DNA from: Desulfosudaceae bacterium
GTDB taxonomy: Bacteria; Desulfobacterota; Desulfobacteria; Desulfobacterales; Desulfosudaceae
Length of the DNA: 64,000 nucleotides
Direction of reading: 5' to 3'
Assembly: GCA_963674745.2 (NCBI GenBank)
Contig: CAXXDV010000001.1
Span: 608,001 to 672,000 of the forward strand
Shown here: positions 32,552-55,224 of the stretch, piece after piece
Layout: each line of letters begins with the position of its first letter
Numbering within the stretch: position 1 is the stretch's first letter
The notes under the pieces: model-generated
What the model saw: the letters and a program-made list of their open reading frames with translations, nothing else
What the model was told of the DNA's origin: nothing
Database searches by the model: none
Translations under genes and position numbers: made by a program

Positions 32552-32628
32552 GGTGGGTGTAGCTCAGTTGGTAGAGCATCAGGTTGTGGCCCTGAGGGTC
32601 GTGGGTTCAAGTCCCATCACTCACCCCA
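32552..32628 (+). tRNA. tRNA-His (GTG)
   Basis: G-1 plus GTGGGTG/CACTCAC acceptor stem, TCAGG-TTGTGGC-CCTGA anticodon arm, GGTTCAAGTCC T arm, encoded CCA. Confidence 0.96.
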
Positions 32629-32682
32629 TATCTCCGACAGCAACCGGAGCCTTCTTTGCGAATTGGGCTCCGTTTTCCCTTC

Positions 32683-32759
<77 letters not shown>

Positions 32760-32778
32760 ATAAAATCAATTTAATCTG

Positions 32779-33289
32779 CTATTCAATCTCGGCCTTTATT
32801 GCCGTGATATTTGAAATCGGGCAAACAGAAATTTTCTCTTCAGCAGGATAAGAAGCTGTTCCAGGATAAACGATCCACAGGTGCTCAAGATGAAGATCGT
32901 TTATCGCGATACGCATAGACTTGGTTATTTCAGGGGCTTCTTTTAACTTGAACTCAATACCGTACGTTTTCCCTGTGCATAAAAAAGAGATCAAGTTCCG
33001 CGTTATAATGAGTGGCCAAGAAAAATGCCTGTGTCGGGTTCATTGTCTTTAAAACTTCTTCTAAGGCGAATTCCTCCAAGGATGCACCTACGGACGGATG
33101 TCCCCAGAACGTATGGTAGTCCGGAATATTCAACAGAAAATGGAGAATCCCCGTGGCCCTGAAGTAAACCTCGGGAGATTTTACCTGGCGTTTGCCGATA
33201 TTCCCATGCCACGATTGAAGTTGACGGAGCAAGAATGTACTGGACAGGATATAGAGGTAAGACCGAATGGTTTTGTCCGAGATACCCAT
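32779..33289 (-). pseudogene. Fragmented AAA+ ATPase/DUF4143 gene (C-terminal part only, frameshifted)
   Basis: ...TIRSYLYIL..TFLLRQL.SWHGNIGKRQVKSP.VYF..TGILH...AELDL in one frame continues as GIEFKLKEAP...LWIVYPG in another; the N-terminal ATPase is missing. Confidence 0.8.
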
Positions 33290-33515
33290 GGATCAGGCTT
33301 ATCCGAAGTTCAACTGGAACGCGGTTGACAACGCTGATGATGGTTTACGATTAAAAAACGGGCTTGAGGGGATGACGCCCACTTCTTTAAAGATTTTTTT
33401 GATGTGTTATTTAGTAAACTGGCGTACTTGTACGATCGATAATAGCTTGACTTGTATCAATTTTTATGTTTAAAAAATCTTTAAATCCATCAAAAACAAC
33501 GAGACCGCCATAATA

Positions 33516-33601
33516 TTCATGCCAAAGCCAACCGCCGGGTGACCGGTTGACGGAAAGCAACGGGCCTTTTGTAATATAAAAGGCAGCCGGGCCGTCATGA
33601 A
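33516..33601 (+). ncRNA. Cyclic dinucleotide riboswitch, GEMM-I (c-di-GMP-I) class
   Basis: P1 TTCATG/CATGAA; AAAGCCAA...CCGG-GTGA-CCGG GNRA-capped P2; GACGGAAAGC junction; P3 CGGGCCTTTT...AAAAGGCAGCCGGG; lies in the 5' UTR of a surface-protein gene. Confidence 0.82.
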
Positions 33602-33614
33602 ACGATGATTTGAG

Positions 33615-33656
33615 GCCGGACCGCCTTTGGTAAAGAATGGTTCGGTTTTTTATTTT
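33615..33656 (+). terminator. Intrinsic terminator of the riboswitch expression platform
   Basis: GCCGGACCG...TGGTTCGGT stem followed by TTTTTATTTT, between the aptamer and the start codon. Confidence 0.7.
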
Positions 33657-33688
33657 AATCTATACGGGGGGAGAAAAGGGGGGGGATC

Positions 33689-36600
33689 ATGAAAATCAAA
33701 CAAACCTGCCTGCTGACGTTGTTCCTGGGGCTGGTACTGTCAATAGCGACATATTCAATGGCGGATGTGGATTTTACCGCCAGCAAAATGTATGACGCCG
33801 CCGGGGACAATCCAAATCCAGTTGCCACTGGTGACCTTAACGGCGACAACCACCCTGACCTGGTAACAGCTAATCGGTCATCCAACAACGTATCCGTACT
33901 GATCAACAACGGCGACGGCACTTTTGCCGCGGCCGTAAATTACAGTACCGGGAACTGGCCATATTCAGTTGCCATCGGGGACTTGGACGGCGACTCCCAC
34001 CCTGACCTGGTAACAGCTAATTCTTATTCCAACGACGTATCCGTGCTGATGGGCAACGGTGACGGTACTTTTGCCACGGATGTCATATACAGCGCCGGAG
34101 ACGGGCCACATTCAGTTGCCATCGGGGACTTGGACGGCGACTCCCATCCTGACCTGGTAACAACGAATAATGATGCCGACGACGTATCTGTGCTGATCAA
34201 TAACGGCGACGGCACTTTTGCCATGCGCGTAAAATACAGCGCCGGGAACGGGCCACGTTCAGTTGCCATCGGAGACCTGGACGGCGACTCCCACCCTGAT
34301 CTGACAGTTGGTAATATTTTGGACGACAACATATCCGTACTGATCAACAACGGCGACGGCACTTTTGCCGCGGCCGTCAACTACAGCGCCGGAGACGGGC
34401 CACGTTCAGTTGCCATCGGGGACCTGGACGGCGACTCCCATCCTGACCTGGTAACAGCTAACCAGTCATCCGACAACGTATCCGTGCTGACCAATAATGG
34501 AGACGGCACTTTTACCGCCCCAGTCAACTTCGCTGCAGATAACTCCCCCTATTCAATCGTCGCTGACGATTTGAATGGTGATAATTATCTGGATCTGGCT
34601 GTGGCTAATTATTACTCTGAAAGTTTGACAGTGCTGTTGGGCCACGGCAACGGCACCTTTGCCGCCGCTGTTAATTACGCTGCCGGAGAGGGAGCATGTT
34701 CAGTTGCCGTTACCGATCTCGACGGAGATACCCACCCAGATCTGGTTGCAGTCAATGGTGTAGCTGACAATATTTCTGTTTTGGCAAATAACGGCGATGG
34801 GACTTTTGACTGCGCTGTTAAATACGATGCGGGTGACGGGCCCTTTTCAATTGCCATTACCGATCTGGATAGTGATGCCAACCTGGATTTGGCGGTGGTC
34901 AATAATTATTCTGACGATGTCTCTGTGCTATTGGGCAACGGCAACGGGACTTTTACCGCATATACCAGCTACAGCGTGGGTGATTCACCATGGACAGTAG
35001 CCAGTGCCGACCTGAACGGTGATAATTGTCCAGACTTGGCTACGGCTAACGGTGTTTCTGACAATGTATCGGTGCTGTTGGGCAACGGTGATGGGACCTT
35101 TGGCGTCGCTGTTAATTTTGCCGCCGGTGATCGACCAATGTCAATTGCGATTGACGACCTTGACGGTGATACTTTCCCTGATTTGGTGGTGGCTAACAAT
35201 AACTCTGACAACTTGTCGGTACTGCTGGGCAACGGCGATGGGACTTTTGACGCCGCTGTTAACTATTCTATTTGGGGATCACCCAATTCAATTGCTATTG
35301 CCGATCTGAACGGTGATAATTGTCCGGACCTCCTGGCAGGGGATGTCGACTATGACATCGTCTCGGTACTGTTGGGCAACGGCGACGGCACCTTTGCCAC
35401 CCATACTGATTACAGTGTGGGTGATTCACCAAAGTCAATAGCCCTTGCCGACCTGAACGGTGATACCTATCCGGACTTGGCTGTGGCCAACATTTCTTCT
35501 GACAATGTGTCGGTGCTGTTAGGCAATGGCGATGGGAGCTTTGTCGCCGCTATTAATTATGCCGCCGGAGATGGACCAAAAGCGATTGCCATCGCGGATC
35601 TGAACAGCGACACTCACCTGGACTTGGCAGTAGCCAATAATTATTCTGACAACATCTCGGTGCTGTTGGGCAACGGTGATGGCACCTTTGCCGCTGCCGT
35701 CAATCTTATTGCCGGTAACATGTTGGAATGTATTGCCATTGCTGACCTTAATGGAGACTCTGCGCCGGATCTTGTAACCGCTAATCAGAAAGCCGACAGC
35801 GTATCCGTGCTGATTAACCGTTCAACACTATCCTGCGACACCCCACCCGCTGCCCCCATCCCGACCTCACCCTCGGGAACCATTGATCAGACCACGCCGA
35901 TCTATGTCTGGGAGAGCGATCCCTGCGCCGATGCTTACCAACTTATCATCCGGGACGAGGCCCAACAGGATATCTTTTCCCAATGGTATGATGCAGCTGT
36001 GGTGGATAACGGTGACGGAACCTGTTCTATAAATCCCGGCCTGGAACTTGCCCCGGGTAGTTATTATTGGCTGGTGCAGGCGCAAAATCAGTATGGAACA
36101 GGTCCCTTGAGTACGGAAATGGCCTTTACGGTCGAAGAAGCCGATAGCGACGGTGATGGCACGCCGGATTCCAGTGACGGCTGTCCCTACGATCCGAACA
36201 AGATTGATCCGGGTGCTTGCGGCTGCGGTATAGCGGACACGGACACCGACAGTGACGGCACACCGGACTGCAACGATGGCTGCCCGAATGATCCGGCCAA
36301 GGTTGATCCGGGTGCCTGCGGATGTGGGATTCCGGATACGGACACGGACAGTGACGGTACACCTGACTGTAACGACTTGTGCCCAAATGACCCGAACAAG
36401 GTTGATCCGGGTACATGCGGATGCGGCATAGCAGACACCGATACCGACAGCGATGGTACCCCGGACTGTATTGATCAGTGTCCAAATGATCCGAATAAAA
36501 CCAATCCCGGTACGTGCGGATGCGGTGTGCCGGATACAGACTCCGACGTTGACGGTGTTCCGGACTGTAACGATCAGTGTCCCAACGATCCAAACAAGAC

Positions 36601-38212
36601 GGTTCCGGGAACCTGCGGATGCGGGGTTGCGGACACGGATACCGATAGTGACGGTACGCTGGACTGCAACGATGGCTGTCCCAACGATCCGGCCAAGATC
36701 GATCCCGGAGTCTGCGGCTGCGGCGTAGCAGATACGGATACGGACAGTGACGGTACGCTGGACTGTAACGACGGTTGTCCGAATGATCCGGCCAAGATCG
36801 ATCCGGGTGCCTGCGGATGCGGAGTGCCTGACACTGACACGGACGGTGACGGCACGCCCGACTGCAATGACCTGTCGCCTTTTGGTGTTGACTTTGGTGA
36901 TGCCCCGGATCCGACCTACCCGACACTGCTTGCATCAGACGGCGCCCGCCATACGATCCTCCCGGGATATTTTCTGGGTTCAGGCATAGACTACGAATCT
37001 GACGGTCAGCCTGACGTCGATGCCATGGGCGATGATAACAATGGAATTACGGACGAAGACGGGGTGGTTTTCAACACCCTTATTATTGCGGGTCAAACCG
37101 TGAGCTTGACAGTAACCGCTTCGGACACCGGGAACCTGGATGCCTGGATCGATTTGAATGGGGATGGTGACTGGGCTGATGCGGAAGATCAGATTTTTAC
37201 CAACCAGGCATTAACAGCCGGCGAAAACGATTTGGACATTGATCTTCCGGTCAGCGCTGTGGCAGGTATGACCTTTGCGCGATTCCGGTTCAGTGCAGCC
37301 GGTGGCTTATCATATGACGGCCTTGCCGCTGATGGAGAAATAGAAGATTACCAGGTTGAGATTCTGGGGGATGCAGATGGCGATGGTGAACCGGACATCA
37401 CCGATGGTTGCCCGAACGACGCGAACAAGGTTGATCCCGGTACGTGCGGCTGCGGTGTGTTGGATACCGACTCCGATGTTGACGGTGTTCCGGACTGTAT
37501 TGATCAGTGCCCCAACGATCCCAACAAGACGGTCCCAGGCACCTGCGGATGCGGCGTTGCTGACACGGACACCGACAGTGACGGTACGCCGGACTGTATC
37601 GATCAGTGCCCGAATGATCCCGATAAGACCGTTCCCGGTACATGCGGATGCGGTGTAACGGATGCTGATTCAGATAACGACGGTGTTGCGGATTGTAATG
37701 ACAATTGCCCCGGCACACCCTCCGGAGAAAGTGTTGATTCCAGTGGATGCGATATTGACGCTCCGACGCCCGACCCGATGGTTTTCTCATCCAACCCCTC
37801 GGCAGGTGGAACGGGTTCGATCAGCATGACCGCGGCAACAGCCGCTGACGGGAATGGTGTCCAATATTATTTTGAGGAGACAACAGGAAACAGCGGTGGG
37901 ACAGACAGCGGGTGGCAGGACAGTGCCAGTTATACAGACACCGGGTTAAGCGCCAGCACGCAATACGCGTATCGGGTCAAGGCCCGCGACAAATCCGCAA
38001 ACAATAACGAAACCGGCTGGTCTTCGGTACAGACCGCCACAACCGACGATCCGCCCAAGTCGGGCTGTGGCGCGGCGCCAATGGGACGCAACGGTATTGA
38101 CCCTGTTTCCGCCAGAAAATCCATGGGCAAGGCAGCGCTTCCGTTAGCGCCCTCGATCCTGGCACTGGGCATTTGGTCTCTGATTAACCGCAAAAAAAGT
38201 CGCGAGGCCTAA
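33689..38212 (+). CDS. Large secreted surface protein: 14 FG-GAP/VCBS repeats, Ig-like domain, TSP3-like Ca-binding CGCG repeats, GEVED domain, FN3-like domain, C-terminal Cys-TM-basic tail
   Basis: Signal peptide ending YSMA|D; 14 DL(N/D)(G/S)D...DL units; 10 DxCPxDxxKxxPGxCGCG units; DFGDAP...AWID.N.DGD...ARFR...GEIEDY; ends KSGCGAAP...AALPLAPSILALGIWSLINRKKSREA. Confidence 0.9.
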   Translation: MKIKQTCLLTLFLGLVLSIATYSMADVDFTASKMYDAAGDNPNPVATGDLNGDNHPDLVTANRSSNNVSVLINNGDGTFAAAVNYSTGNWPYSVAIGDLDGDSHPDLVTANSYSNDVSVLMGNGDGTFATDVIYSAGDGPHSVAIGDLDGDSHPDLVTTNNDADDVSVLINNGDGTFAMRVKYSAGNGPRSVAIGDLDGDSHPDLTVGNILDDNISVLINNGDGTFAAAVNYSAGDGPRSVAIGDLDGDSHPDLVTANQSSDNVSVLTNNGDGTFTAPVNFAADNSPYSIVADDLNGDNYLDLAVANYYSESLTVLLGHGNGTFAAAVNYAAGEGACSVAVTDLDGDTHPDLVAVNGVADNISVLANNGDGTFDCAVKYDAGDGPFSIAITDLDSDANLDLAVVNNYSDDVSVLLGNGNGTFTAYTSYSVGDSPWTVASADLNGDNCPDLATANGVSDNVSVLLGNGDGTFGVAVNFAAGDRPMSIAIDDLDGDTFPDLVVANNNSDNLSVLLGNGDGTFDAAVNYSIWGSPNSIAIADLNGDNCPDLLAGDVDYDIVSVLLGNGDGTFATHTDYSVGDSPKSIALADLNGDTYPDLAVANISSDNVSVLLGNGDGSFVAAINYAAGDGPKAIAIADLNSDTHLDLAVANNYSDNISVLLGNGDGTFAAAVNLIAGNMLECIAIADLNGDSAPDLVTANQKADSVSVLINRSTLSCDTPPAAPIPTSPSGTIDQTTPIYVWESDPCADAYQLIIRDEAQQDIFSQWYDAAVVDNGDGTCSINPGLELAPGSYYWLVQAQNQYGTGPLSTEMAFTVEEADSDGDGTPDSSDGCPYDPNKIDPGACGCGIADTDTDSDGTPDCNDGCPNDPAKVDPGACGCGIPDTDTDSDGTPDCNDLCPNDPNKVDPGTCGCGIADTDTDSDGTPDCIDQCPNDPNKTNPGTCGCGVPDTDSDVDGVPDCNDQCPNDPNKTVPGTCGCGVADTDTDSDGTLDCNDGCPNDPAKIDPGVCGCGVADTDTDSDGTLDCNDGCPNDPAKIDPGACGCGVPDTDTDGDGTPDCNDLSPFGVDFGDAPDPTYPTLLASDGARHTILPGYFLGSGIDYESDGQPDVDAMGDDNNGITDEDGVVFNTLIIAGQTVSLTVTASDTGNLDAWIDLNGDGDWADAEDQIFTNQALTAGENDLDIDLPVSAVAGMTFARFRFSAAGGLSYDGLAADGEIEDYQVEILGDADGDGEPDITDGCPNDANKVDPGTCGCGVLDTDSDVDGVPDCIDQCPNDPNKTVPGTCGCGVADTDTDSDGTPDCIDQCPNDPDKTVPGTCGCGVTDADSDNDGVADCNDNCPGTPSGESVDSSGCDIDAPTPDPMVFSSNPSAGGTGSISMTAATAADGNGVQYYFEETTGNSGGTDSGWQDSASYTDTGLSASTQYAYRVKARDKSANNNETGWSSVQTATTDDPPKSGCGAAPMGRNGIDPVSARKSMGKAALPLAPSILALGIWSLINRKKSREA

Positions 38213-38224
38213 TCTTCACGAGAC

Positions 38225-38257
38225 AACAAGGGCGGTCAGGCAATGACCGCCCTTGTT
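38225..38257. terminator. Hairpin between convergent genes, probable bidirectional terminator
   Basis: Perfect 14-bp stem AACAAGGGCGGTCA/TGACCGCCCTTGTT with a 5-nt loop. Confidence 0.75.
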
Positions 38258-40241
38258 ATTTATAGGGGAAAAAGCGGCAGGCGGGATCGCCAAGCAGGTT
38301 GTACAGGAAAAGATCATTCCGCAGCATGCCCGGCGTGCCCAGTGACGCCTTTTCATTCTCAGGCACAGCATTTAAAAGAGACCTCGCCAGCGGGTCATTG
38401 CCGGCAATCTCGTTGAATGATTGATCCCCGGTATCATAGAGGGCCTGCTGAATGCCAAGGAACGCCTGGCCGATCGTGTCGGTCGTTTTTTGCAGATGCA
38501 TGATTATTCCCTTTACAAACAAATAGTTTGTCAGGGGATGGGTTGTGCCTGTTGCCGATACGACCCCGACAGGACCGTTTGGTTGGGCCAAAAACGCTTC
38601 CCCTAGAGACGGTCCGCTGCTTTTGGGCAGGCAATACCGTCCTGAGTCACACCCCAGCATAAAAAGAACACCCGGGGGGGAATTCCCTGCCGGAGAATTC
38701 AACGACATTTTCGAAACATCTTCTACGCTGAGAAATATCTCTTCACCATCGTAAGTTCCGGCTGTCACGCTCCGGTATGACCCGTGAGAGACGATGAGCG
38801 ACAGAAAGGGGCGGTTGCTGTTTAAGCGGGCAAGAAATGTAAAGGGCTGCGCTTTGAGTTCTCCTGATGAGACGGCCTGAGAATCCGCGCCGATAACAAC
38901 AGGAACAATCCAGTCCGGCAGGCGTTCCAGCAAACGGGGCGCCATCCGGCTCATCTGGGCCGTGTACCCCTGGGCGCCAAACCACACCAGCACCTTCTTT
39001 TGTGCAGGACCGGCATACTGTTTTGAATAGCTGATGATTTTTTTGATCTGTGCGTCAAGTTCAGCGGTAGACTGAATAGCCAGCCGCCCTACCGGCACAT
39101 CCGGCAAACCGTCATTGTCCATATCACCGTATTGAGCGTCCGACGTATATTTTCCGGAGGCAAACGACGGCATATGCCATGGGGCCTGCATGTCATTGCC
39201 ATGCCCGCAATCACCAACAATCAGGATATTTCCGATCGGTTCTTGGAACATCCTTTGCCGGCTCTCTATCCAGCCTTTTACGTCTTCGCGGTCCGGGGTG
39301 GTTTCCCAGGCCCTGACAACGACCCGATATCCTTCTTTTTCTCTAAAACCCGCCCATTCGTTTAAGGCCTCGGAAAAAACAGACCGGGTCACAACAAGAT
39401 AGGGGATTTGGTTAACGGTTTTCTCAGAAACCGCTTTAAACATCATATTTCTTATGCCGGTTCCCGCCAACAACGAAAGAAGCAGCAGACAGACGGCCGC
39501 GACAGCCCCTCTTTTCTTCCATTTCAGGATCAAAAGAACGCACAGGGATAAGATAAAAATCAACACACAAACGACCTGAAACACGCGTAGCCCCGGAATT
39601 AATAAAAGGCCGGAATCCGCACCTCTGAAAAACTCGCTGATAAACCGATGAGCGGCAAGAAACAGGCAGTACAGCGGAAATAAACAGACCCGCTTTTCAG
39701 GCTTCCCCCACAACCATTGAAGGATAACAAGGGAGAACGCTTCACCGATCATGCTGTAAATCTGGGTCGGATGCACCATGCAATTCAGACGATCTGAAAA
39801 AACAGCCCAGGGGACATCCGAAGGCGTTCCATAACAGCAGCCATTCACCAGGCATCCGATACGGGCGATAATATGGGCCAGCGCATAAGCCGGCGCGACA
39901 CTTCCCAGATTGCTCCAAAACGGCTTTTTAGCCACCCGAAGAACGATCCACATGCCGAGAGGTCCCAGCAGCGGGCCTCCCAGCCAGGTGCCTGTTTCCT
40001 GCCAGAAAGCGATTGCCAGCCAAAAGTCATCCACGAACAGTCGGGGATAGAAGATCAGCACATAAAGGATCCGGGTGCCCAGAAGACCGGCGTAGATCCC
40101 CGCAGTGAGGGCGATAATAGCCAGGGGGAAAGAGCAGCCGTTTTTGAACATGTTTCTGGTGGCCAGCACACCACCGGCAAGGAACCCTGTAAAGCCCCAG
40201 AACCAGTAATTCATTATTAAATTGATGAAATATTCAACCAT
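38256..40241 (-). CDS. Fusion of an Lgt-like prolipoprotein diacylglyceryl transferase domain and a peptidase C25 (gingipain-like) domain
   Basis: N-terminal TM domain: GTRILYV, ARIGCLVNGCCYG, HPTQIY, RFISEFFR. C-terminal domain: ILIVGD, SDAQYGD.D.D..PDVPVGRL, SHG (His), GCDSG (Cys), SLGEAFL, YNLLGDP. Confidence 0.85.
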   Translation of the reverse strand: MVEYFINLIMNYWFWGFTGFLAGGVLATRNMFKNGCSFPLAIIALTAGIYAGLLGTRILYVLIFYPRLFVDDFWLAIAFWQETGTWLGGPLLGPLGMWIVLRVAKKPFWSNLGSVAPAYALAHIIARIGCLVNGCCYGTPSDVPWAVFSDRLNCMVHPTQIYSMIGEAFSLVILQWLWGKPEKRVCLFPLYCLFLAAHRFISEFFRGADSGLLLIPGLRVFQVVCVLIFILSLCVLLILKWKKRGAVAAVCLLLLSLLAGTGIRNMMFKAVSEKTVNQIPYLVVTRSVFSEALNEWAGFREKEGYRVVVRAWETTPDREDVKGWIESRQRMFQEPIGNILIVGDCGHGNDMQAPWHMPSFASGKYTSDAQYGDMDNDGLPDVPVGRLAIQSTAELDAQIKKIISYSKQYAGPAQKKVLVWFGAQGYTAQMSRMAPRLLERLPDWIVPVVIGADSQAVSSGELKAQPFTFLARLNSNRPFLSLIVSHGSYRSVTAGTYDGEEIFLSVEDVSKMSLNSPAGNSPPGVLFMLGCDSGRYCLPKSSGPSLGEAFLAQPNGPVGVVSATGTTHPLTNYLFVKGIIMHLQKTTDTIGQAFLGIQQALYDTGDQSFNEIAGNDPLARSLLNAVPENEKASLGTPGMLRNDLFLYNLLGDPACRFFPYK

Positions 40242-41095
40242 TCCACAACGATATTAATACTCACGTGAATAATCAAGGCCCAACCGATGCCGGATGTCCT
40301 CTGCGTCACTGCGCCAAAAATCAGCCCGAGTGCCAGGACACATCCAAGATAACCGAAACCGGACAGAACAACAGGCCCAAGATGCATATGAAACACGGTG
40401 TAAAGCAACGCCTGAAAAATGATTCCCGGGATCAGGCCATACCGCTCCACACAAACGGGTTGAAGTATTCCCCGGTAGCAAATCTCTTCGGTGCCACCGG
40501 TCAGGGAGGCTTTCATGATCGCGATCAACACGACCCCCCAGAATGGTCCCAGCGGCTGAATCTGAATCCTTGTCACAATACCGATCGCCATGAAAACGGC
40601 TGCCGCGGAAGTAACGACCAGAACCACAGACAAGGGCGTTGTGACAGAAAAGCGCCCCCACGCCCCCCAACGAATGGGATTGCCCTGCCCATTGACGCGG
40701 TTCATAATAAGCACCGGAACCAGGACGTTGGCCGCAAATATGAAATGAAAATATAATAACAGCAGATATCCGTATAAATTACCGGGACGGGCAAGGGGCC
40801 ACGCGACTAGGCCATAATACCGAAAACAATTAAACACCCAGAATCCGGTGGCAAGAGCTGTAATTAACCTGAGTAGCCGACGATCTGCATAAACAGGTCT
40901 TAACACCGGGACAAATGCCGTAATCGCCATGCCAGTCACAATAAACAGGGCCACGGCAATACGCCAGCGGTCTGCCCCGGCTGCTGTGAGCAAATGAACC
41001 ACAAGTAAAAAAACAGCTAAAAGTGCAACCGGCTCAAATATTAAATATACTTTATTGTTTTTGTGAAAGGCGTGATCAGGGATATGCGTTTTCAT
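40217..41095 (-). CDS. CPBP/Abi (CAAX prenyl protease type II-like) glutamic intramembrane protease
   Basis: Multi-TM protein with EEICYRG, YTVFH and HVSIN motifs; its 3' end overlaps the start of the Lgt-C25 gene. Confidence 0.88.
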   Translation of the reverse strand: MKTHIPDHAFHKNNKVYLIFEPVALLAVFLLVVHLLTAAGADRWRIAVALFIVTGMAITAFVPVLRPVYADRRLLRLITALATGFWVFNCFRYYGLVAWPLARPGNLYGYLLLLYFHFIFAANVLVPVLIMNRVNGQGNPIRWGAWGRFSVTTPLSVVLVVTSAAAVFMAIGIVTRIQIQPLGPFWGVVLIAIMKASLTGGTEEICYRGILQPVCVERYGLIPGIIFQALLYTVFHMHLGPVVLSGFGYLGCVLALGLIFGAVTQRTSGIGWALIIHVSINIVVEWLNISSI

Positions 41096-41236
41096 GGACT
41101 GATATTATACGATATTATTCCCCATGACAAAAGCACACACAACATTCAGGTATCCGCCAAAATCCACGATTGATTTTTCATGTGTTTTCCTAAAGGACAC
41201 AGCAGGTCAAAAAATCGTCCCCTTTAAATACTGACG

Positions 41237-41303
41237 TTCTTGCAATACGTTGCATTGGTTGCACATAGGTTGCAGCGAGAGGTTGTTTCAGGGCAACTTT
41301 AAC
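41237..41303 (+). repeat. att-arm-like repeat, copy A (iterated TTGCA)
   Basis: TTCTTGCAATACGTTGCATTGGTTGCACATAGGTTGCAGCGAGAGG...CAGGGCAAC; near-identical copy at about 43037 and a partial copy at about 48737. Confidence 0.8.
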
Positions 41304-41347
41304 AGATTCGGTTTCAATAAAATCAATATGTTATAGGTTAAAACAAA

Positions 41348-41393
41348 ACTTCGAATCCGTAGGCCGGGGGTTCGAACCCCTCCGGGCGCGCCA
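41348..41393 (+). repeat. att core: tRNA-Arg 3' fragment, copy 2
   Basis: ACTTCGAATCCGTAGGCCGGGGGTTCGAACCCCTCCGGGCGCGCCA; one mismatch to 32714-32759. Confidence 0.93.
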
Positions 41394-41404
41394 ATAAATT
41401 TATT

Positions 41405-42322
41405 TCAGAAAGTCCATGGACCTGACACAGTCCATTTTGAAGGCGGCGACTTTCGTGCAATCAAAGCCGAGGTTATCGGGCTGATAAATTCTTTCACTTG
41501 CATGACAATGATTTCGAACTCAGCAGGAACATGATCATGTTTGAGCTTTTTCCTGAAAGCATTCCATTGGACTTGTTTTGCTATGATGAACTCATGTGAA
41601 AAGGCAACTATATTTATGCTGTCTGGAAGTTCTGTCCCACGTTGCTCAAGCGTCAATCTGATCGCTTCTGACAGAATCTTACCATCAAAATCAAAATTGC
41701 GCGAAAGAAGCCAGATATCATAGAAATCCTTCATCCGGCTGTTCAACTCTCGACGTTTCAACATGGCTTCAAATTTTTCCGCGATCGAACTTTCACGGCT
41801 GTAACACAATAATTGAGGGGCCGGGAACTCCAGTATCGTCGGTATTTCTGATCTTTCAGGTTCGGGATAGATAATATCGCCGAATCCTATATCAATCTGT
41901 ATATTAAGCCTCATTGTATCCAGTTTTGTCGGAAACGATATTCTGACGCCCTGATATTCCGCATCCTCAGTAATATGCTCGGCCATTATGTTTTCAGGAG
42001 AGAAAGAGAGTCCGTCAGGATCAACAGCAACGGTTAGTATATCGGTTATATTGGAAATAAGTGACGACACGTCATTGTCTGTTTTACCAAGCAGGTCAAT
42101 GTCCATCGTTGATCGGATTTCAGGCGCTTGCCAGATCCGAAGCATCAGCGCCCCCTTCAGGATAAACCGGTTGGCATGCCGAGATTGTGCCAGGCGATAC
42201 AGAAACCGCTCCATGGCATAGTAATGAACCAGTTCTTGAAAAGGACGGCCATCAGTTCTGGCTTTATTGAGCAGCCGCTGTCTTACGGAGGCTGAGACAT
42301 TTTTCACCTGCTTTTTTATCAA
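41405..42322 (-). CDS. AbiEii/AbiGii-family nucleotidyl transferase toxin (type IV TA)
   Basis: ERFLYRL, FILKGA, RSTMDIDL, IDIGFGD, IAEKFEA and NSRMKDFYD. Confidence 0.9.
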   Translation of the reverse strand: MIKKQVKNVSASVRQRLLNKARTDGRPFQELVHYYAMERFLYRLAQSRHANRFILKGALMLRIWQAPEIRSTMDIDLLGKTDNDVSSLISNITDILTVAVDPDGLSFSPENIMAEHITEDAEYQGVRISFPTKLDTMRLNIQIDIGFGDIIYPEPERSEIPTILEFPAPQLLCYSRESSIAEKFEAMLKRRELNSRMKDFYDIWLLSRNFDFDGKILSEAIRLTLEQRGTELPDSINIVAFSHEFIIAKQVQWNAFRKKLKHDHVPAEFEIIVMQVKEFISPITSALIARKSPPSKWTVSGPWTF

Positions 42323-42912
42323 AGTGTTGCCTCCAGATAAGGCGTCATAATCTTTTTTACCCGACAGACCTCAGCGTACCTCAGCAGCTTTTCGAGATTG
42401 AATGGTTGCCTGGTTCGATACAGCTTAAGCGCTTCAAGAACAACCTCCATTCCAACTTTGTTCCGGAACTTAAAACAATCGGCCAGGGTCTTCTCCGGAG
42501 TATAGATCCTTACGTTTGCACCATCTATGGTGTGTTTTTCGATGCCGGAGGTGTAAGCTTTATCAGAGAATCGATGGGCCTGAACAGGAGGGTAGTCGAG
42601 AGAAGGGGCTCTTGAGTTTTTTGGCACCGCCACGGAAACAACATGTGGAATCTGGGTCGTGATATTATGGTAATGCAGGGCTGAGATAAGGCAGATTACG
42701 GTATTAGGGAACCGAAGGCTTACTGTAACAAGATCCGGGTTGGATAGCGGGGGCAGTTCCACAAGGCGATAAACACCTCTGGTCACTTGCTCTATTAGCC
42801 CCCTGTCTCTTAGCGAATAAAGCATATAACGCGTAATACCATGTGAAATCGCCTCACTCATTCGAAGTTGCCCGCCATGCTTCCGGAAAATTGTTAGTGG
42901 AGATTCTTTCAT
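42319..42912 (-). CDS. AbiEi-family antitoxin / transcriptional regulator
   Basis: wHTH RGVYRL, ICLISALHYH..TTQIP and YTPEKTLADCF; coupled to the toxin gene. Confidence 0.9.
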   Translation of the reverse strand: MKESPLTIFRKHGGQLRMSEAISHGITRYMLYSLRDRGLIEQVTRGVYRLVELPPLSNPDLVTVSLRFPNTVICLISALHYHNITTQIPHVVSVAVPKNSRAPSLDYPPVQAHRFSDKAYTSGIEKHTIDGANVRIYTPEKTLADCFKFRNKVGMEVVLEALKLYRTRQPFNLEKLLRYAEVCRVKKIMTPYLEATL

Positions 42913-42968: not shown

Positions 42969-43036
42969 ATCAGGATAAAAAAGTCAAGATGAATTTGAAA
43001 ATCCCTCAAAATTCGGACGAGACTTAAATTCTTAGG

Positions 43037-43103
43037 TTCTTGCAATACCTTGCATTGGTTGCGCATAGGTTGCAGCGAGAGGTCGCTCCAGGGCAACCTT
43101 GAC
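43037..43103 (+). repeat. att-arm-like repeat, copy B (no tRNA fragment follows)
   Basis: TTCTTGCAATACCTTGCATTGGTTGCGCATAGGTTGCAGCGAGAGG...CAGGGCAAC. Confidence 0.8.
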
Positions 43104-43164
43104 AATTATTTGCTAAACAAAATCATTTTTCTGACCTTCTATTAAGTCAAAAACAAGCCCGGGT

Positions 43165-47176: not shown

Positions 47177-48491
47177 TGATGAAAAAATGCAGCGTGACTT
47201 AATGAAAGGGTTCCTGGAAAAGCAAGGCTATGATGTAAGCGTGGCCGCGGATGGTAATGAGGCGCTGACATTGTTTTCAAACTACCCGTTTCAACTGGTC
47301 CTTCTGGACAACCGGATGCCGGATTCGTCCGGTGCCGAAGTTCTGGAACGGATAAAGACCATCAACCCCCTGGTGCGCTGCATTATGATTACGGCTTACG
47401 GGTCGGTGGATACGGCTGTGGAAGTCATGAAACTGGGGGCTGACGATTTTCTTGAAAAACCGGTGGATCTTTCGGCCCTGCTGGAAAAAATCAGATTGAT
47501 TGAAAAATCCATCATAATAGAAGAAGAAGCCGCAAGTGTTTCAGAGGCCTTGGCGGCAAAAGAACTGCCGATCAGGATGATCGGTGAAAGCAAAAATATG
47601 AAAATCGTTTTTTCCCTGGTCAGGCGAATCGCGCCGACGGATTGGACGGTCTTAATTCAGGGAGAAACCGGAACCGGAAAAGACTTAATCGCCAGAATTC
47701 TCCACATGCTCAGCCCGAGGAACGAGAATCCGTTTATAGAAGTGAATTGTGCCGCCATCCCGGAAAACCTGTTCGAGTCAGAATTTTTCGGGCATGAAAA
47801 AGGCGCCTTTACCGGAGCGGTATCCAGCCGCAAAGGCAGCTTTGAACTGGCACAAAAGGGGAGCCTGTTTCTGGATGAAGTGGGAGAATTGCCCGTAAGT
47901 TTACAGGCTAAACTGCTGAGGGCTTTACAGGAGAAAAGGATCAACCGGGTGGGCAGTGCGCAAAGCATTCCCATTGATGTCCGTGTGTTTGCGGCCACAA
48001 ACAGAGACCTCAAAAAAATGGTTGAAGACGGCAAATTCAGGGAAGACCTGTTTTACCGTTTAAAAGTTCTGGATCTTGAAGTACCGCCGCTCCGCCACAG
48101 AAAGGAGGATATTACACCTTTAGCAGAATTTTTCATCGATCGATACAGCTCCAGCCCTGTTCGATTTGATCCGGATGCTTTGGCCACACTGATTAAATAT
48201 ACTTTTCCCGGTAATGTCCGGGAACTTGAACACATGATCCAGCGGATTTTAACGCTTTCAAGGGGGACTGTCATCCGGCCAGAAGATTTACCTGCAGAGG
48301 TCCGTTTTCACCACGCCAACGATCAGGGGACATTGACCGAACGGCTTGAGACGGTCGAGCGGGAAATGATTATTTCCGCTCTGGAAAAACATGACTGGGT
48401 GCAGACCCATGCGGCCGACGACCTGGGGATCAGTGAACGGGTGCTTCGTTACAAAATGAAAAAGTATCGTATCAAAAACGATGGGAAATAA
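47151..48491 (+). CDS. Sigma54-dependent response regulator (NtrC/ZraR family)
   Basis: REC domain, GETGTGK, GAFTGA, LFLDE, AATNRDL, FREDLFYRL and a C-terminal Fis-type HTH. Confidence 0.95.
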   Translation: MIMKILVVDDEKMQRDLMKGFLEKQGYDVSVAADGNEALTLFSNYPFQLVLLDNRMPDSSGAEVLERIKTINPLVRCIMITAYGSVDTAVEVMKLGADDFLEKPVDLSALLEKIRLIEKSIIIEEEAASVSEALAAKELPIRMIGESKNMKIVFSLVRRIAPTDWTVLIQGETGTGKDLIARILHMLSPRNENPFIEVNCAAIPENLFESEFFGHEKGAFTGAVSSRKGSFELAQKGSLFLDEVGELPVSLQAKLLRALQEKRINRVGSAQSIPIDVRVFAATNRDLKKMVEDGKFREDLFYRLKVLDLEVPPLRHRKEDITPLAEFFIDRYSSSPVRFDPDALATLIKYTFPGNVRELEHMIQRILTLSRGTVIRPEDLPAEVRFHHANDQGTLTERLETVEREMIISALEKHDWVQTHAADDLGISERVLRYKMKKYRIKNDGK

Positions 48492-48797
48492 CCCTTTTTC
48501 CAAAGCTGTTCATTCATCCCAGTGACAGTTCCTGAAGGCGAAGTAAAAGATATTTATCTGGCTGCAAAACACTCCGCTGCACTGAAAGCATTAGTTAAAC
48601 TAATTTTTTGAATGTCTTGGGAATACACCATACTTCAGTTTAAAGAAAATCAACGTACCTTTTGGATAACCAAGACTAAGTTCAAAAACGGTTCCCTGTA
48701 TTCTATAATATAGCCGGACCGCCTTATTTTTTTACGTTTCAGGGCAACTCTAACGATTTTGGCCAAATAATATCAACATGTTATGCATTTAAGTAAA

Positions 48798-48843
48798 ACT
48801 TCGAATCCATAGGCCGGGAGGTCGAATCTCTCCGGGCGCGCCA
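48798..48843 (+). repeat. att core: tRNA-Arg 3' fragment, copy 3 (degenerate)
   Basis: ACTTCGAATCCATAGGCCGGGAGGTCGAATCTCTCCGGGCGCGCCA (4 mismatches to the tRNA); the preceding ~60 nt resemble those preceding copy 2. Confidence 0.88.
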
Positions 48844-49024
48844 ATATTTCAGAACATTATGTTGTCAACAAAATCTTCCGGTTTTTAAAAAAGGTCAAAA
48901 AGAGGATGTTTTGGCATTTTTGCTATTCATCAAGGGGGAGGCATGGGCAGGTCATAATTGCCCGCTCTTGAAGACATGAGCATACGCAGCAATGAGACGA
49001 CAATGGGATAAATTAGCGTTTACA

Positions 49025-51232
49025 TTATTTAATATCGATCCATATTGGGCTTGCCCAAGCCATTTCATGATCTTTTTGAATAACACGAATATAATAAAAG
49101 ATATAAGGATTCGGAGAAAATTGATTGGGCGTCATTGATATCTCGTTAATAGGGATGTTATCTTCCCAATATGTTTCAAGATCAAGCCCGTTTCCTGTTA
49201 TTGAATGTACAATTTTATTGTTGCGTATAATTTGTAACTTTTCAACAGGGGCTGTTCCGTGAAATGCGATATGAAGGCGTCGCTTCGCCGCCAGATCAGG
49301 CATTGTTGTTGTATCCAACTCTGAGCCCATGGGGCTGCCATTTAAATCGTAATTTAAAAGTACCCTTTCGCCAGTTGTCGCAACGACTCTTCGGTTATAT
49401 AGGGCATCCCATAAAGCCTCTCTGGTAAGGTCGGTTGCGAGTACGCCCATGACACCGTCCTTGGTCCATAAATCCTTCATGCCGACGATCCCGGCCGTAC
49501 CGGAATGATCGTCTCCGCCAGCAGCAAATCCGACACGCCATCCACGTCCAAGCGCATCTTGCACATAGCCGTGAGGAAACGAAATCGCTTTTGGATGCAA
49601 TAGATTTCCGTTTTCCACCGAGCATTCATAGCTCCCTCTGACTTGAAATATTTCAACCAGCCTTTCAAACTCAGGGGCATGATTTTTCCAGTTGCAATAT
49701 GAGGATGCTTCTGCAGTATGGTGTGGTATTGCTATTACCGCTTCATTACTTTTCCGCAAAACATTAAAAAGATCCGTTCGTTCAGTATAATATAGGCTTC
49801 TATACATGGGGGCGCTATCGTTCAAATAGTATGCACAAAGATCGCCATTACCATCACCAAGCCAGTTATCCCATTCATACCCTAAGAAGGTTACGAACTC
49901 TCCGGGTTTATTATATTCCCGCACTTTCCGTGATATCCTTTCCCACAAAACATCCGGGGTGGACAGTATATTACAATGTTCAGAAGATGCTGCGAAATCT
50001 AAAGCAGCCTCGTCTCGCATCTGAAGGTAGTAATGATCCAGACTGCCGGTAGCATCCCAAGACATTTCTGAATGCCCGTGAATAACGCCCCAGTAAGTTT
50101 TATATTTATCTGGCGCCTCCTTGCATACGAAAGGATTTGTCATAACAGATTTGCCTGAGCTTTTATCGACTATATTTAAACGGTAAACACCTTTCTTTGA
50201 TATCGAAACGGTCACGTTACAACTTGTTGATACGGAATTCTTGATGCATTCCGGCTCCCAACTCGTATTTTCGGCATCAATTTTGATCGATTCTACTCCC
50301 TGTCGAGACAGGTTATTGCTTTTATCTTCAGGCCTGACCAGGATTGAAAAAGGTTTATTAATGATTACTTGTGAAGGTGCATAGGCCCGTATGTGATCTG
50401 TTTCTCCACCTTCAACGTTTATTAAACATGCCCCGATAATTGTTTGCGGATTCAAGTGAAACTGGTAATTCATCTTGATATGTTTTTTTAGAAATTGCTT
50501 CTTTTGATCGTCGTCATTATCAATATGCTCCAGAAAAAAGCATTTTCTTCCACTTATTGGAAAGCATATGTCATGAAAAGTTACGATGATCATGCTCCCG
50601 GCTGATAAATGTTCGGGGACTTTGAACATATTGCCGGATATATGAGGCAGTTTTACTTCGTTGCCAGTCTTAATGTAATATTTCCTGAAACTTAGCTTAT
50701 GCCTTTCACTGTCTAATTGAATGACGGCACCTTCAGGGACATTTTTCGAAAGAATGAAACGCAATTCCAGCTGCTCATTATTATCGTTTGCATAAACTTT
50801 TTCAGGGGTTGAGCGCTGTATGGTCACCCTGGGCGGTATTTTTATTGGCATACCATTATTGTTAAATAAAAAATCATAGGCATATACGATGTATCCCTTT
50901 TCAATGGTATTCCCCTGATCATTATTGACGTTTAAACCAATAAAATAATCACCGGGAATGTCGGCTATAAAAGTGGGCCTGGTCGTATTCGGATCGGATA
51001 GACGCGCATTGCTTTTTTCTGGTAATGAATAGAAAGACCAGTAATGTGTCAATGTACCCTTCTCAATATTATTTAGGTTTCCATCAAGTATCACTTTTGT
51101 TCCGGGTTTAACAATTGACGGCTTATTTGGAAGGACAAGAGTGCCGGATCTAGGCACAAAATGAGTATACATATAGAGACTTATACAAATAAATATCACT
51201 GTAACAAAAACAATTGATAATATTTTTTTCAT
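49025..51232 (-). CDS. DUF3604-like PHP-fold metallohydrolase with N-terminal anchor and PKD-like domain
   Basis: YWGVIHGHS, SEH, GYEW, IPHH, GGDDH and C-terminal YYIRV.Q....AWASPIW. Confidence 0.75.
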   Translation of the reverse strand: MKKILSIVFVTVIFICISLYMYTHFVPRSGTLVLPNKPSIVKPGTKVILDGNLNNIEKGTLTHYWSFYSLPEKSNARLSDPNTTRPTFIADIPGDYFIGLNVNNDQGNTIEKGYIVYAYDFLFNNNGMPIKIPPRVTIQRSTPEKVYANDNNEQLELRFILSKNVPEGAVIQLDSERHKLSFRKYYIKTGNEVKLPHISGNMFKVPEHLSAGSMIIVTFHDICFPISGRKCFFLEHIDNDDDQKKQFLKKHIKMNYQFHLNPQTIIGACLINVEGGETDHIRAYAPSQVIINKPFSILVRPEDKSNNLSRQGVESIKIDAENTSWEPECIKNSVSTSCNVTVSISKKGVYRLNIVDKSSGKSVMTNPFVCKEAPDKYKTYWGVIHGHSEMSWDATGSLDHYYLQMRDEAALDFAASSEHCNILSTPDVLWERISRKVREYNKPGEFVTFLGYEWDNWLGDGNGDLCAYYLNDSAPMYRSLYYTERTDLFNVLRKSNEAVIAIPHHTAEASSYCNWKNHAPEFERLVEIFQVRGSYECSVENGNLLHPKAISFPHGYVQDALGRGWRVGFAAGGDDHSGTAGIVGMKDLWTKDGVMGVLATDLTREALWDALYNRRVVATTGERVLLNYDLNGSPMGSELDTTTMPDLAAKRRLHIAFHGTAPVEKLQIIRNNKIVHSITGNGLDLETYWEDNIPINEISMTPNQFSPNPYIFYYIRVIQKDHEMAWASPIWIDIK

Positions 51233-51325
51233 TTAACGCCCTCATACTGTCTTGACTTTTAATGACTCGTTTATATCTAATGGTCCTGGCAACCAGATGA
51301 CGCCAGGCCATCATAAAGGACGAAA

Positions 51326-52760
51326 TCAGTTGAGCTTTGATATGATATTTTGGAACGCTTGTGTTCCTCTGATATTATCAATATCTTCATCTGTTAGGAG
51401 AAAATCCGTTTTGTTATATCCTTCATCCACAGCTCTGCTTAACCATGCCAATGCTTCATAGCTATTTTGCATCATGGCGAGCATACAGGCAATATTATAG
51501 GAAATGGTCGGATTATCAGGTTCAATTTTTTTAAGCCTGCTGAATGTCTCAAAAGCTGAGGCATAGTCCCCTAACGAGGCGTATACTTCTGCTGTATTAC
51601 ATAAAACATCCTGTTTTGGGCCACTGCTTTCAAAAGCCGCCTTGAAACAAGCGAGGGCTTTATTCAACTTCCCGCTGCTTTTATATAATTTCCCAAGGGA
51701 CAGTAAGTATATCCCATCATTGGGTTTCTCACGCAAGATTTTTTTGTTTTTTGAATCTGCTGGGCAATTATGTCCATTCTTTTTTTAACTGTAGACAGTT
51801 TTGTCGCAGCCTCCTCAAATTTATCATTTGTTTCAAGAGTTTTATTGTAAAAAGCAATGGCTTCTTCCAGTCTGCCCTTGGCTGCCGATATGTTCCCTCT
51901 TAAAAAAAACAACTGTTCGTTTTTTAGATTATCACCAGATGCCAGATTGAAAGACGCTAAAGCCTTTCTATATTTTTTATACGAATAATAAACAGTGCCG
52001 ATAAAAAAATTATTGTTTATTTTTTCATCAGTAACAAAGTAATTCAAATCTATGAGGTCGTTATCGTTGATGGACTTCAACCATGCATCAATATGGCGTG
52101 ATACGACACCGGCGCCGAAAGTATTTACATGATTACCATCTCCGTAGAATTCATCCGGCAGTTCCAGGGTGGACAAATCTATACATTCTACAGCATATTG
52201 TCTGCTTAATTTATTCATATAGTCTTCGTGCATATCGAGAAAACGCCTGGGGATTAGCCTGTAATAAGAAGGATGAACCGGCGTATTTATGAAAACAACC
52301 TCTATTCCGCGTGATTGTAGCAGAACGATAAGCTTGCTTAGATATTTTTCTTGTAATGATGAGAAGTTTTGAACTTCCTCCCCGTTGAAGAACAGCCTTG
52401 AAATCATTGCGCTTGTTGATTGTAAGCTTACTCTAGAGTTATAACTTCTATAAAACCCGCCTAAAAAAGGTATGGTTGATATGTCTTTTGAGAATAATTG
52501 TGAAACTATCCATGGTTCCAAGTAAAACTTACTATGAATCAGTTTGGAGAAAATTACATCGAAATTATATTGCATCAATTCCATATAGGCTTCAAAAGGA
52601 AGGATTGTCTGATAGTAATGAAAACGCTTTTCTATATTTTCGCCGTAAAGGTGTGACTCATACATTAGTGACAGTGCATGATTAGGATATCCGATGAGTA
52701 CTCTTTTAACATCCCTCTGTGCCAATGAAAATGAGACACCTACCCCTTGAAAAATTAGTG
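51326..52760 (-). pseudogene. SGNH/DUF1574-like plus TPR protein, frameshifted near 51745 and apparently lacking its 5' end (upper coordinate approximate)
   Basis: VVFINTPVH and FYGDGNHVNTFGA, then TPR repeats that continue in the overlapping ORF 51326..51736 (YNIACMLA); the shift lies in an A6-C-A7 tract. Confidence 0.6.
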
Positions 52761-53236
52761 TAGTGCGGGTAGGAGTAATCATTATGAAAACAATGCAATT
52801 ATCATTACCAGACGCCAAGGCCACTGGGCCGGTAGGTACGGTGTCAACGGAGGGAGCCCGATTATGGCTACTGGGCTGAATAATCCAAAATTTGCCAACC
52901 GGACGACACAGTAAAGCTGCCTCAAAAATCCCGTGTTTTTCTTTGTTTTCCAATGCCTTGAAAAGTTTTCTGTTCTTTTTATCTTTTTGACAATGTCCTG
53001 TCGAATCCCGCCTGAAAGGCCCATCAACAAGTTTCGCCCTCAGAAATATTGACACACAAGACCGCACTTGCTATAAATGATGACCATAAAAGCACCTTCT
53101 TATCCTTGAAAATTAAGAGGCTACAGAAAGCAGATTACAAAAAAATAAGTAGCAACATTAACACCCAGCACTTTGCACTGCCCAGTTAAAACTTTAACGC
53201 GTTTTATTAACAACAACTTTAGAAGAAAGTCGCCCC

Positions 53237-54589: not shown

Positions 54590-55019
54590 CGCTTTAAAGA
54601 GCTAAAATTCTTGCCAGTCTCTCTTCTACTGTTTACTCTTTTTTATCCATGGACTGCTGAGGAGAGCTTTTTAAAATTCTTTTCTATAGATACACGTGGA
54701 TGATACTCACATTTAAGGTCTCTTCCACCGTCCCCCTGACAACCTTATACAGGTGTTTCTTTAACTGCCCCTGCTCGATCTTAATTATCTAACCTGATTT
54801 CAAATCTTTACTTCCCGCACACCTTTTGCTATCCTGCATTTGTAGCTCTCCTTCTGTTTTGTGGCTGAGTCTTGGTCTACCCAACCCTTACCAGATCGGG
54901 GGCTACTTCTTCATCAAAAAATGTGCGAAAAATATTGTACGTTATCGCAAATATGGGACTATCGAAAAAGGGGCTGGATGAAGGGTATGCTCCGGCCAGA
55001 ACGGTGAGCCACAGGCCAG

Positions 55020-55224
55020 CAAAGAAATCTGCCGACATGCTTAAAAGGCACGCTTACGGGAACCTGAAACATTGCGATTATCCGATTCATACCAGTAAAA
55101 GAGAATGTGTTAACAATAAAATTAAGGCCATAATACGAAAACCCTGTGGATTTCATGACGATAGACACTTTATATTAAAGGTCGTCATACAGGCCTTTAC
55201 CTCCCACTGATAGGGAGAAAAACC
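55020..55224 (+). mobile_element. ISL3-family transposase C-terminal remnant with right end
   Basis: HAYGNLKHCDYPIHTSKRECVNNKIKAIIRKPCGFHDDRHFILKV resembles the ISL3 EGxNNKIKxxKRxxYGF tail; followed by GGGAGAAAAACC. Confidence 0.72.

Follow-up and report, generated by a model that had tools for sequence, protein, structure and literature searches.

The DNA analysed here is a 64,000-nucleotide (nt) stretch from a Desulfosudaceae bacterium (GenBank assembly GCA_963674745.2, contig CAXXDV010000001.1). It is called the window below, and positions given without a locus name are those of this whole stretch. At 33689-41095, the window carries a cassette of three open reading frames (ORFs). The first encodes an exported repeat protein of 1507 amino acids (aa), here called the cargo (33689-38212, forward strand), which ends in a putative sorting tail. 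Two reverse-strand genes converge on it. They encode a 661-aa fusion of a domain resembling the prolipoprotein diacylglyceryl transferase Lgt with a peptidase of family C25 (38256-40241), and a 292-aa Rce1-like glutamic intramembrane protease of the CPBP family (40217-41095). An earlier note, made from the sequence alone, had described these three ORFs, including the numbering of Cys1460 in the cargo, the Lgt-C25 fusion, and the convergent CPBP operon; ORF calling, Pfam searches, and translation reproduced all of this. As set out below, the three genes and the tail are one conserved unit across several phyla.

The cargo starts with a signal-like N-terminus. Pfam searches revealed 13 stretches of FG-GAP_3 (PF13517, E-value 9e-106) and a GEVED domain, and a match to thrombospondin type 3 repeats, which are of the calcium-binding type, stayed just under the gathering score (22.7 vs. 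25 bits). The gene contains internal repeats of 147 nt and 99 nt. According to the translation and to tail alignments, the putative C-terminal sorting tail comprises the last 53 residues (1455-1507; 38051-38209, forward strand). It consists of P-P-K-S-G-C1460-G-A-A-P, with the Cys1460 codon at 38066-38068, a polar spacer of 23 residues, a hydrophobic helix beginning at A-L-P-L, and the basic end N-R-K-K-S-R-E-A. A tail profile was built from five tails and then from nine (alignment A2) and run against all ORF ends. In the cargo's own genome, it matched a single one of 22285 ORFs, namely the 1507-aa cargo (9e-29; next best 0.042).

Altogether, 24 distinct tails were compared, and each of them has the same tripartite design of Cys motif, hydrophobic helix, and basic cluster at the extreme C-terminus. 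The Cys is present in all 24, as the earlier note had anticipated, with one Cys per tail placed 16-26 residues ahead of the helix. It is followed by Gly in 21 tails and by Ser in three; position +4 from the Cys is usually Pro and position +7 often Arg. Close to where the helix begins, all nine tails of alignment A2 have a Pro, and the basic cluster ends the tail after the helix. The earlier note's description of Cys, spacer, transmembrane helix, and basic end was accurate, except that the SGC motif it had given has to be replaced by C-[GS]-x-x-P, in which the Pro is mostly present. The residues after the Cys, mostly Gly, small residues, and Pro, may provide a CAAX-like context.

The tail-bearing protein bodies are unrelated to one another. 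Besides the FG-GAP protein of the window, they include M4 and M28 peptidases with PKD domains, small Ig-like proteins, an RHS-repeat protein, and a giant of 1837 aa with only weak, sub-threshold immunoglobulin- and fibronectin-type matches. Since the same tail occurs on otherwise unrelated proteins, it behaves as a portable sorting signal. A search of five tails against NCBIfam with E-values up to 10 matched no family, although the HMMER filters may hide very weak matches. As a separate observation, a 222-aa protein encoded near one fusion gene (L005 3172-3840, reverse strand) ends in V-P-L-P-P, a helix, and R-R-R-R-K and has no Cys (tail-profile E-value 0.018). This end looks like a different C-terminal sorting signal, presumably of the PEP-CTERM type.

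The N-terminal part of the fusion (residues 12-237; 39531-40208, reverse strand) is an Lgt-like diacylglyceryl transferase domain, matching PF01790 with 125.5 bits at a cut-off of 24.9 (2.7e-36). It aligns to the E. coli Lgt structure 5azb. The AlphaFold model of the fusion, with a predicted local distance difference test (pLDDT) score of 88.1, matched the same structure in Foldseek with an E-value of 7.3e-7 and a template-modelling (TM) score on the target of 0.60. Thus, the Lgt fold is present. On the Lgt equivalog model TIGR00544, the fusion reached 55.9, below the cut-off of 118.9, and its best other model was NF000778 (73.5 vs. 334). The housekeeping Lgt of the genome is encoded by a separate gene of 258 codons (L002 1492-2268) and passes TIGR00544 with 141.6. 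According to the accessible text of a study on E. coli Lgt, the residues R143, G154, R239, and R246 are essential, as are E243, H103, and E151; the arginines do not tolerate mutation, and the likewise essential His of the HGGL motif was proposed as a peptide-binding site (PMC4728403). The fusion counterparts of the first four, R127, G138, R199, and R206, are invariant in 35 fusions, and so is an H-P-x-Q-x-Y stretch.

Both the fusion (at 39800-39860) and the housekeeping Lgt carry three Cys residues at the positions of E. coli N146, E151, and the residue next to it. E151 of E. coli Lgt binds the head group of phosphatidylglycerol. The resulting Cys-rich signature R-I-G-C-x3-G-C-C-Y-G (E. coli G-R-L-G-N-F-I-N-G-E-L-W-G) was considered as a specialisation of the fusion and rejected, because the housekeeping Lgt has the same signature. 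As the housekeeping enzyme also shares the loss of the HGGL His, both features are lineage traits rather than specialisations. In a quick maximum-likelihood tree, 27 CPBP-linked Lgt domains were separated from 70 ordinary Lgts by a long branch with full support (Shimodaira-Hasegawa-like approximate likelihood ratio test, SH-aLRT, 100). Phyla are intermixed within the CPBP-linked group, as expected for horizontal spread. The CPBP-linked Lgts would represent a new Lgt subfamily.

After the seventh helix and a K-W-K-K-R-G cluster, the fusion has an extra, eighth hydrophobic helix (residues 244-268; 39438-39512, reverse strand), which is part of a helix spanning residues 220-273 in the model. E. 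coli Lgt has seven helices and an external N-terminus (PMC4728403), so that, owing to the eighth helix, the C25 domain would be expected at the outer face of the inner membrane, beside the Lgt active site. The C25 domain itself (residues 281-656; 38274-39401, reverse strand) is gingipain/PorU-like and matches PF01364 with 111.5 bits at a cut-off of 23 (7.1e-32). Foldseek with the fusion model retrieved the gingipain RgpB (1cvr; E-value 3.1e-12, TM score 0.61), Kgp, and, weakly, PorU (6za2). In profile alignments (E-values of 7.2e-13 with RgpB and 3.5e-8 with PorU), His486 falls on residue 211 and Cys531 on residue 244 of RgpB, its catalytic His/Cys pair. Cys531 is invariant, and His486 is found in at least 90% of the fusion-family members. 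The fusion stays below the PorU equivalog models NF033707 (16.8 vs. 420) and NF052324 (15.9 vs. 450).

We also predicted the docking of the fusion with the tail, which gave a score of 0.46, compared with 0.00 for the best of three controls, and no reported interface. At least 41% of the contacts agreed between runs, and the pLDDT of the partner was at least 56. Of 157 solved complexes, 116 reached the mark set for this procedure, as did 2 of 215 mismatched pairs; among those that reached it, scores of up to 0.60 were obtained for only 18 of the 157 solved complexes and for both mismatches. The predicted docking thus weakly supports a contact between fusion and tail.

The CPBP protein matches PF02517 with 48.4 bits at a cut-off of 22.4 (1.1e-12). 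Its residues Glu203-Glu204-x3-Arg208, Phe235-His236, and His277 are invariant in 12 homologues and represent the family motifs Glu-Glu-x3-Arg, Phe-x3-His (type), and His-x3-Asn/Asp. The scores on the named myxosortase models were all below cut-off (Mrt_core, 23.1 vs. 100; MrtS, 25.5 vs. 130; MrtJ, 22.6 vs. 75; MrtC, 20.6 vs. 195). Foldseek with the CPBP model (pLDDT 84.9) returned nothing at an E-value of 0.001 or better; weak fold matches were SpdC (6u0o, probability 0.99, E-value 0.31) and MmRce1 (4cad, probability 0.89, E-value 0.47). The CPBP gene shares 25 nt with the beginning of the fusion gene.

A scan of one genome per species yielded 79 loci, 12 with a protein comprising both Lgt and C25 parts and 67 with relatives of the C25 part only. 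Among the 12 fusion loci, one (L007) is cut by a contig end and another (L010) has its fusion split into two ORFs. In all 12 of them, the gene immediately upstream encodes a CPBP homologue in the same orientation (E-values 1.9e-60 to 2.3e-39). The metagenome scan returned 14 loci with the Lgt paralog, and the CPBP gene is again directly upstream in all 13 that hold upstream DNA; the remaining locus, L128, starts inside the gene. In the genome loci, the CPBP and fusion genes overlap mostly by 16-19 nt; with the window included, the range is 16-25 nt. None of the 67 C25-only loci had a match to CPBP or to the Lgt part, and clustering the neighbours of 35 C25-only relatives revealed no conserved neighbour, the largest cluster comprising four loci. 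The fusion loci are recorded under the names Thermodesulfobacteriota, SAR324, Nitrospiraceae, Pirellulales, and Gemmatimonadota, and one of the carriers is the cultured Desulfoluna spongiiphila AA1 (L012).

The tail usually accompanies the fusion. Eight tail proteins are encoded in 7 of the 12 genome loci (E-values 1.3e-29 to 2.9e-7) and ten in 9 of the 14 metagenome loci. Most tail genes immediately precede the CPBP gene, but the window and the loci L006 and L010 have theirs downstream and in convergent orientation. Four of the five genomes without a tail in the fusion locus encode one elsewhere (1.5e-24 to 1.7e-8). At an E-value of 0.01, tails were found neither in the 67 C25-only loci (best 0.11) nor in 66 other metagenome loci, that is, in 0/133 control loci. 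Likewise, 400 other genomes of the same phylum contained no tail at an E-value of 0.001, with the proviso that the first look scored at most 15 candidates per genome, so that very divergent tails could escape. A full-length fusion was also missing from these 400 genomes, the next best match (5e-47) covering the Lgt part only. The earlier note had suggested testing whether fusion homologs consistently have a CPBP gene and proteins with such tails in their neighbourhood; this holds for the CPBP gene in every assessable locus and for the tails in most loci.

The Pirellulales genome lacks a tail gene in its fusion locus (L009) and instead carries, on a different contig (G003:C5:189762-193547), two adjacent genes whose products have near-identical tails (L085, L088). 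Thus, cargo genes need not adjoin the enzymes. In a Desulfobacteraceae locus (L008 2148-9074; similar in L120), the tail gene directly follows a set resembling type II secretion and type IV pilus genes, with a T2SSE ATPase, a T2SSF platform protein, four N-methyl pseudopilins, and a PilZ protein; judged by eye, the contig appears to start with the end of a secretin gene. This neighbourhood recalls the dependence on type II secretion that has been reported for MYXO-CTERM proteins.

A collection of 5.8 billion proteins contains 50 other clusters with both Pfam domains, at 35-57% identity to the fusion. Where they are named at all, their label is only "prolipoprotein diacylglyceryl transferase (family protein)". 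About half of the family (760-790 aa) has an extra conserved C-terminal domain of ~120 residues (alignment A1, columns 730-850), for instance P0007, P0010, P0012, L006, L008, L014, and L015; the 661-aa fusion of the window lacks it. In the SAR324 locus L010 (6902-9219), the fusion is split into overlapping ORFs of 343 and 459 aa, which could reflect a frameshift or an assembly error; the adjoining gene for a tail-bearing M4 peptidase is intact. In the metagenome locus L129 (5362-7016), the CPBP gene precedes one for an Lgt paralog of 268 aa, which ends after the eighth helix; no downstream frame encodes a C25 domain, and the locus contained no tail protein. The protein collection includes nine more short versions of the Lgt part (224-352 aa), some without C25; one of them, P0061, is probably the first ORF of the split L010 fusion, since its contig has the same length (47957 nt) as that of L010.

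The cassette is located on an 8.6-kb island remnant associated with a tRNA-Arg gene (anticodon tcg; 32683-32759, forward strand), which was identified with ARAGORN and by reading the sequence. The 3' part of this gene constitutes the left copy of a 58-nt direct repeat, an att-like core (32714-32771; repeat family D10), and the right copy (41348-41405) is a duplicate of this 3' part with 93% identity. Between the repeats lie the three cassette genes and a DUF4143 gene remnant (32954-33289, reverse strand), nothing else. The remnant encodes a 111-aa fragment that matches PF13635 (6.2e-22) at profile positions 41-147 of 160 only. The cassette genes are indeed, as the earlier note had it, the only intact genes between the two att-like copies. 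The scanned ORFs of the 30-57 kb region of the window did not include an integrase gene. A scan of 32600-41500 revealed 12 promoter-like sites (8.4 expected), one of which lies just upstream of the CPBP start (41130-41102, reverse strand), and 21 terminator-like sites (9.8 expected), none of them placed decisively. For 37800-41095, no source of RNA was listed among 11 runs. The island is adjoined by reverse-strand genes for the toxin AbiEii (41405-42322) and the antitoxin AbiEi (42319-42912), which are enclosed by an 81-nt direct repeat (41224-41304 and 43024-43104, 88% identity). The left copy of this repeat falls within the right-hand end of the tRNA-Arg island, so that two small insertions are apparently nested or abutting. 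Farther downstream, the region 48001-56000 has a G+C content of 0.385-0.433, clearly below the values of about 0.47-0.56 in other parts. Most of its ORFs have no Pfam match, DUF3604 and TPR being the sole families recognised, and it is possibly further foreign DNA.

According to the current model for Cys-type signals, as laid out in the accessible text of the myxosortase study, the protein is exported and anchored by its C-terminal helix, its Cys is lipidated by an Lgt-like enzyme, and a CPBP protease cuts after the lipidated Cys (PMC11980579). The same text states that the MYXO-CTERM transferase "remains unidentified" and names Lgt as the leading candidate. Haft, in the accessible part of his work, also anticipated that modification would require an enzyme of its own (10.1101/2023.06.07.544157). 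The cassette is consistent with the current model and would supply the missing transferase in the form of a dedicated paralog. The candidate is co-operonic with the CPBP gene and in most loci near a tail-bearing cargo, and the unit has moved between phyla. We therefore consider it probable that the cassette encodes a dedicated, self-contained, Cys-type tripartite C-terminal sorting and anchoring system with its own Lgt-family lipid transferase. It is best read as a one-cargo system of the myxosortase kind that spread horizontally. The earlier note's view of the cassette as a module for C-terminal Cys lipidation and tail removal is thus supported by comparative genomics and conserved residues. 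Of the refuting outcomes that the note had named, all those accessible to computation were looked for, and none came up.

In the proposed mechanism, the cargo would be exported through its N-terminal signal and held in the inner membrane by the C-terminal helix, so that the basic end would face the cytoplasm. Diacylglyceryl, probably from phosphatidylglycerol, would then be moved onto the thiol of Cys1460 by the Lgt-like part of the fusion. Like Rce1 at CAAX, the CPBP protease should cleave immediately behind the lipidated Cys. For the membrane-tethered C25 domain, two roles are expected as alternatives: it may cut within the spacer beforehand, which would leave a short C-terminal peptide for the CPBP protease, or it may complete the trimming. 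The cargo would end up anchored by a C-terminal lipid.

Several observations weigh against this proposal. The need for two proteases has no explanation. The position of the HGGL His (H103 in E. coli) is not occupied by His in the fusion, nor is it in the genome's own Lgt, and where E. coli has E243, most of the fusion family has Glu as well, but a few members have Gly. The residues ahead of the tail Cys are mostly K-x-G, K-x-Y, or K-x-F and do not form a lipobox; moreover, the Cys is separated from the helix by 16-26 residues, and the topology of the substrate is inverted compared with normal Lgt substrates. Locus L129 and the short Lgt forms without C25 suggest that the C25 domain may be dispensable, an accessory. 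The L013 genome (a 2.9-Mb assembly, completeness not reported) gave no tail match (best E-value 0.135), and neither did the loci L127 and L129, where the search was confined to the locus. Finally, some loci are redundant (L015 equals L122, L125 equals L126, and L008, L119, L120, L121, and L124 are near-identical), so that the linkage is based on about 20 distinct lineages instead of 27.

The fusion could alternatively act like a sortase. Its C25 domain would then cut the tail, and the acyl-enzyme at Cys531 would pass the new C-terminus to an amine or hydroxyl group of a lipid or glycan; the Lgt-like domain would just bind and present the lipid, and the tail Cys would serve recognition rather than thioether lipidation. 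PorU acts as a sortase on C-terminal signals, the conserved His/Cys pair of the fusion aligns to both RgpB and PorU, and a lipid-binding membrane enzyme fused to a cysteine peptidase would suit substrate channelling. A transpeptidase, however, needs neither the invariant tail Cys nor the strictly linked CPBP protease, both of which fit a Cys-lipidation/Rce1-type route. The fusion also retains the catalytic arginines of Lgt, beyond the fold alone, and scores far under the PorU model (16.8 vs. 420), and both L129 and some short forms do without C25. We thus regard a sortase-like reaction as rather unlikely.

We judge it improbable that the tail is a permanent anchor or assembly handle within a stable membrane complex, in which the cargo stays attached by its helix and docks to the two enzymes, and these act on other substrates, for instance propeptides of the cargo or ordinary N-terminal lipoproteins. 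Such an arrangement would be compatible with the conserved Pro motif inside the helix (alignment A2), which also fits a protein-protein contact in the membrane, with the weak docking without an interface, and with those cargos that are peptidases with propeptides, such as the M4 peptidase with an FTP propeptide motif. Yet cleaved sorting signals have exactly the tripartite build of the tail, which moreover occurs on unrelated proteins. As far as the accessible texts go, CPBP enzymes beside Cys tails are predicted or shown to be the cleaving enzymes in four known systems (10.1101/2023.06.07.544157; PMC11980579). The genome also already has a housekeeping Lgt. It is very improbable indeed that the three genes share no function and are neighbours just because one mobile island carries them. 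The window genes do lie between tRNA-derived direct repeats, beside a toxin-antitoxin pair, but their linkage is kept at 35-57% protein identity in several phyla and in different surroundings, the gene ends overlap, and no control contained a tail. The dedicated lipidation and sorting system thus remains our preferred reading.

On this reading, the transferase question for Cys-type signals becomes testable with three genes and a single substrate. It is conceivable, and we propose it tentatively, that the long-missing lipid transferases of Cys-type C-terminal signals are, in general, enzymes of the Lgt family acting on substrates of inverted topology. The cassette would then be the clearest natural minimal kit, in which the Lgt paralog makes a C-terminal thioether-diacylglyceryl lipoprotein and the CPBP protease and the fused C25 domain jointly serve as the counterpart of LspA. 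If this holds true, such C-terminal lipoproteins would form a class of bacterial surface proteins that is widespread but has gone unrecognised, and the fusion would represent a novel bifunctional enzyme type that both lipidates and releases its substrate.

The earlier note had suspected that the combination was undescribed, and no curated model describing the system was found, nor any such paper among those listed, with subscription journals and supplements outside the search; the only relevant paper on Lgt together with CPBP sorting was the myxosortase study (PMC11980579). We count the cassette as a putative new form of Cys-type CPBP sorting system, distinguished by a dedicated Lgt paralog that is fused to a C25 peptidase and by a new tail motif. 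The nearest described system is JDVT-CTERM with its protease MrtJ (10.1101/2023.06.07.544157). As described in the accessible part of that work, it also has a tripartite Cys signal, typically one client per genome, a client gene adjoining the CPBP gene, and a sporadic distribution, and the link between client and protease was likewise inferred from neighbourhood and phylogenetic profile. In contrast to the cassette, the system described there contains no Lgt-like or C25 gene and occurs in other taxa. The JDVT motif has an Asp-Pro nine residues after the Cys and within the helix, whereas the tails presented here have C-[GS]-x-x-P, a spacer of 16-26 residues, and a Pro at the helix start. The CPBP protein of the window scored 22.6 on MrtJ at a cut-off of 75.

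The nearest mechanistic model is MYXO-CTERM with the myxosortase MrtX (mBio 2025, PMC11980579). According to the accessible text, its clients share the Cys motif, the helix, and the Arg-rich end, and cleavage of the tail by the CPBP protease was shown experimentally; an "Lgt-like acyl-transferase" is assumed to lipidate the Cys before cleavage, and the tail of TraA also has a spacer between Cys and helix. In other respects, the MYXO-CTERM system described there differs from the cassette, as it comprises dozens of clients and an unlinked housekeeping enzyme, has no C25 peptidase, and has the housekeeping Lgt as the suspected transferase. In the cassette, the candidate transferase is a distinct paralog encoded in the operon, and the CPBP protein remains below the Mrt_core cut-off (23.1 vs. 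100).

With the Lgt/LspA pathway, the cassette has in common the Lgt-family domain with its arginines and fold, and a Cys next to a membrane helix that is later removed (in the cassette, presumably), as far as the accessible text describes that pathway (PMC4728403). It differs in that its signal is C-terminal, of inverted topology, and without a lipobox. The candidates for removing the helix are a glutamic CPBP and a cysteine C25 peptidase rather than the aspartyl peptidase LspA, and the fusion fails the Lgt equivalog cut-off (55.9 vs. 118.9), whereas the housekeeping Lgt exceeds it. The sortase of the type IX secretion system, PorU, belongs to family C25 and shares with the fusion the C25 fold, the His/Cys pair, and a connection to C-terminal sorting signals. 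It is, however, large and associated with the outer membrane, and what it recognises is a folded C-terminal domain. The C25 domain of the cassette, by contrast, would be tethered to the inner membrane within an Lgt-like protein, which would be an unexpected role for a gingipain-like domain, and its putative signal is a short tail made up of Cys, helix, and basic end.

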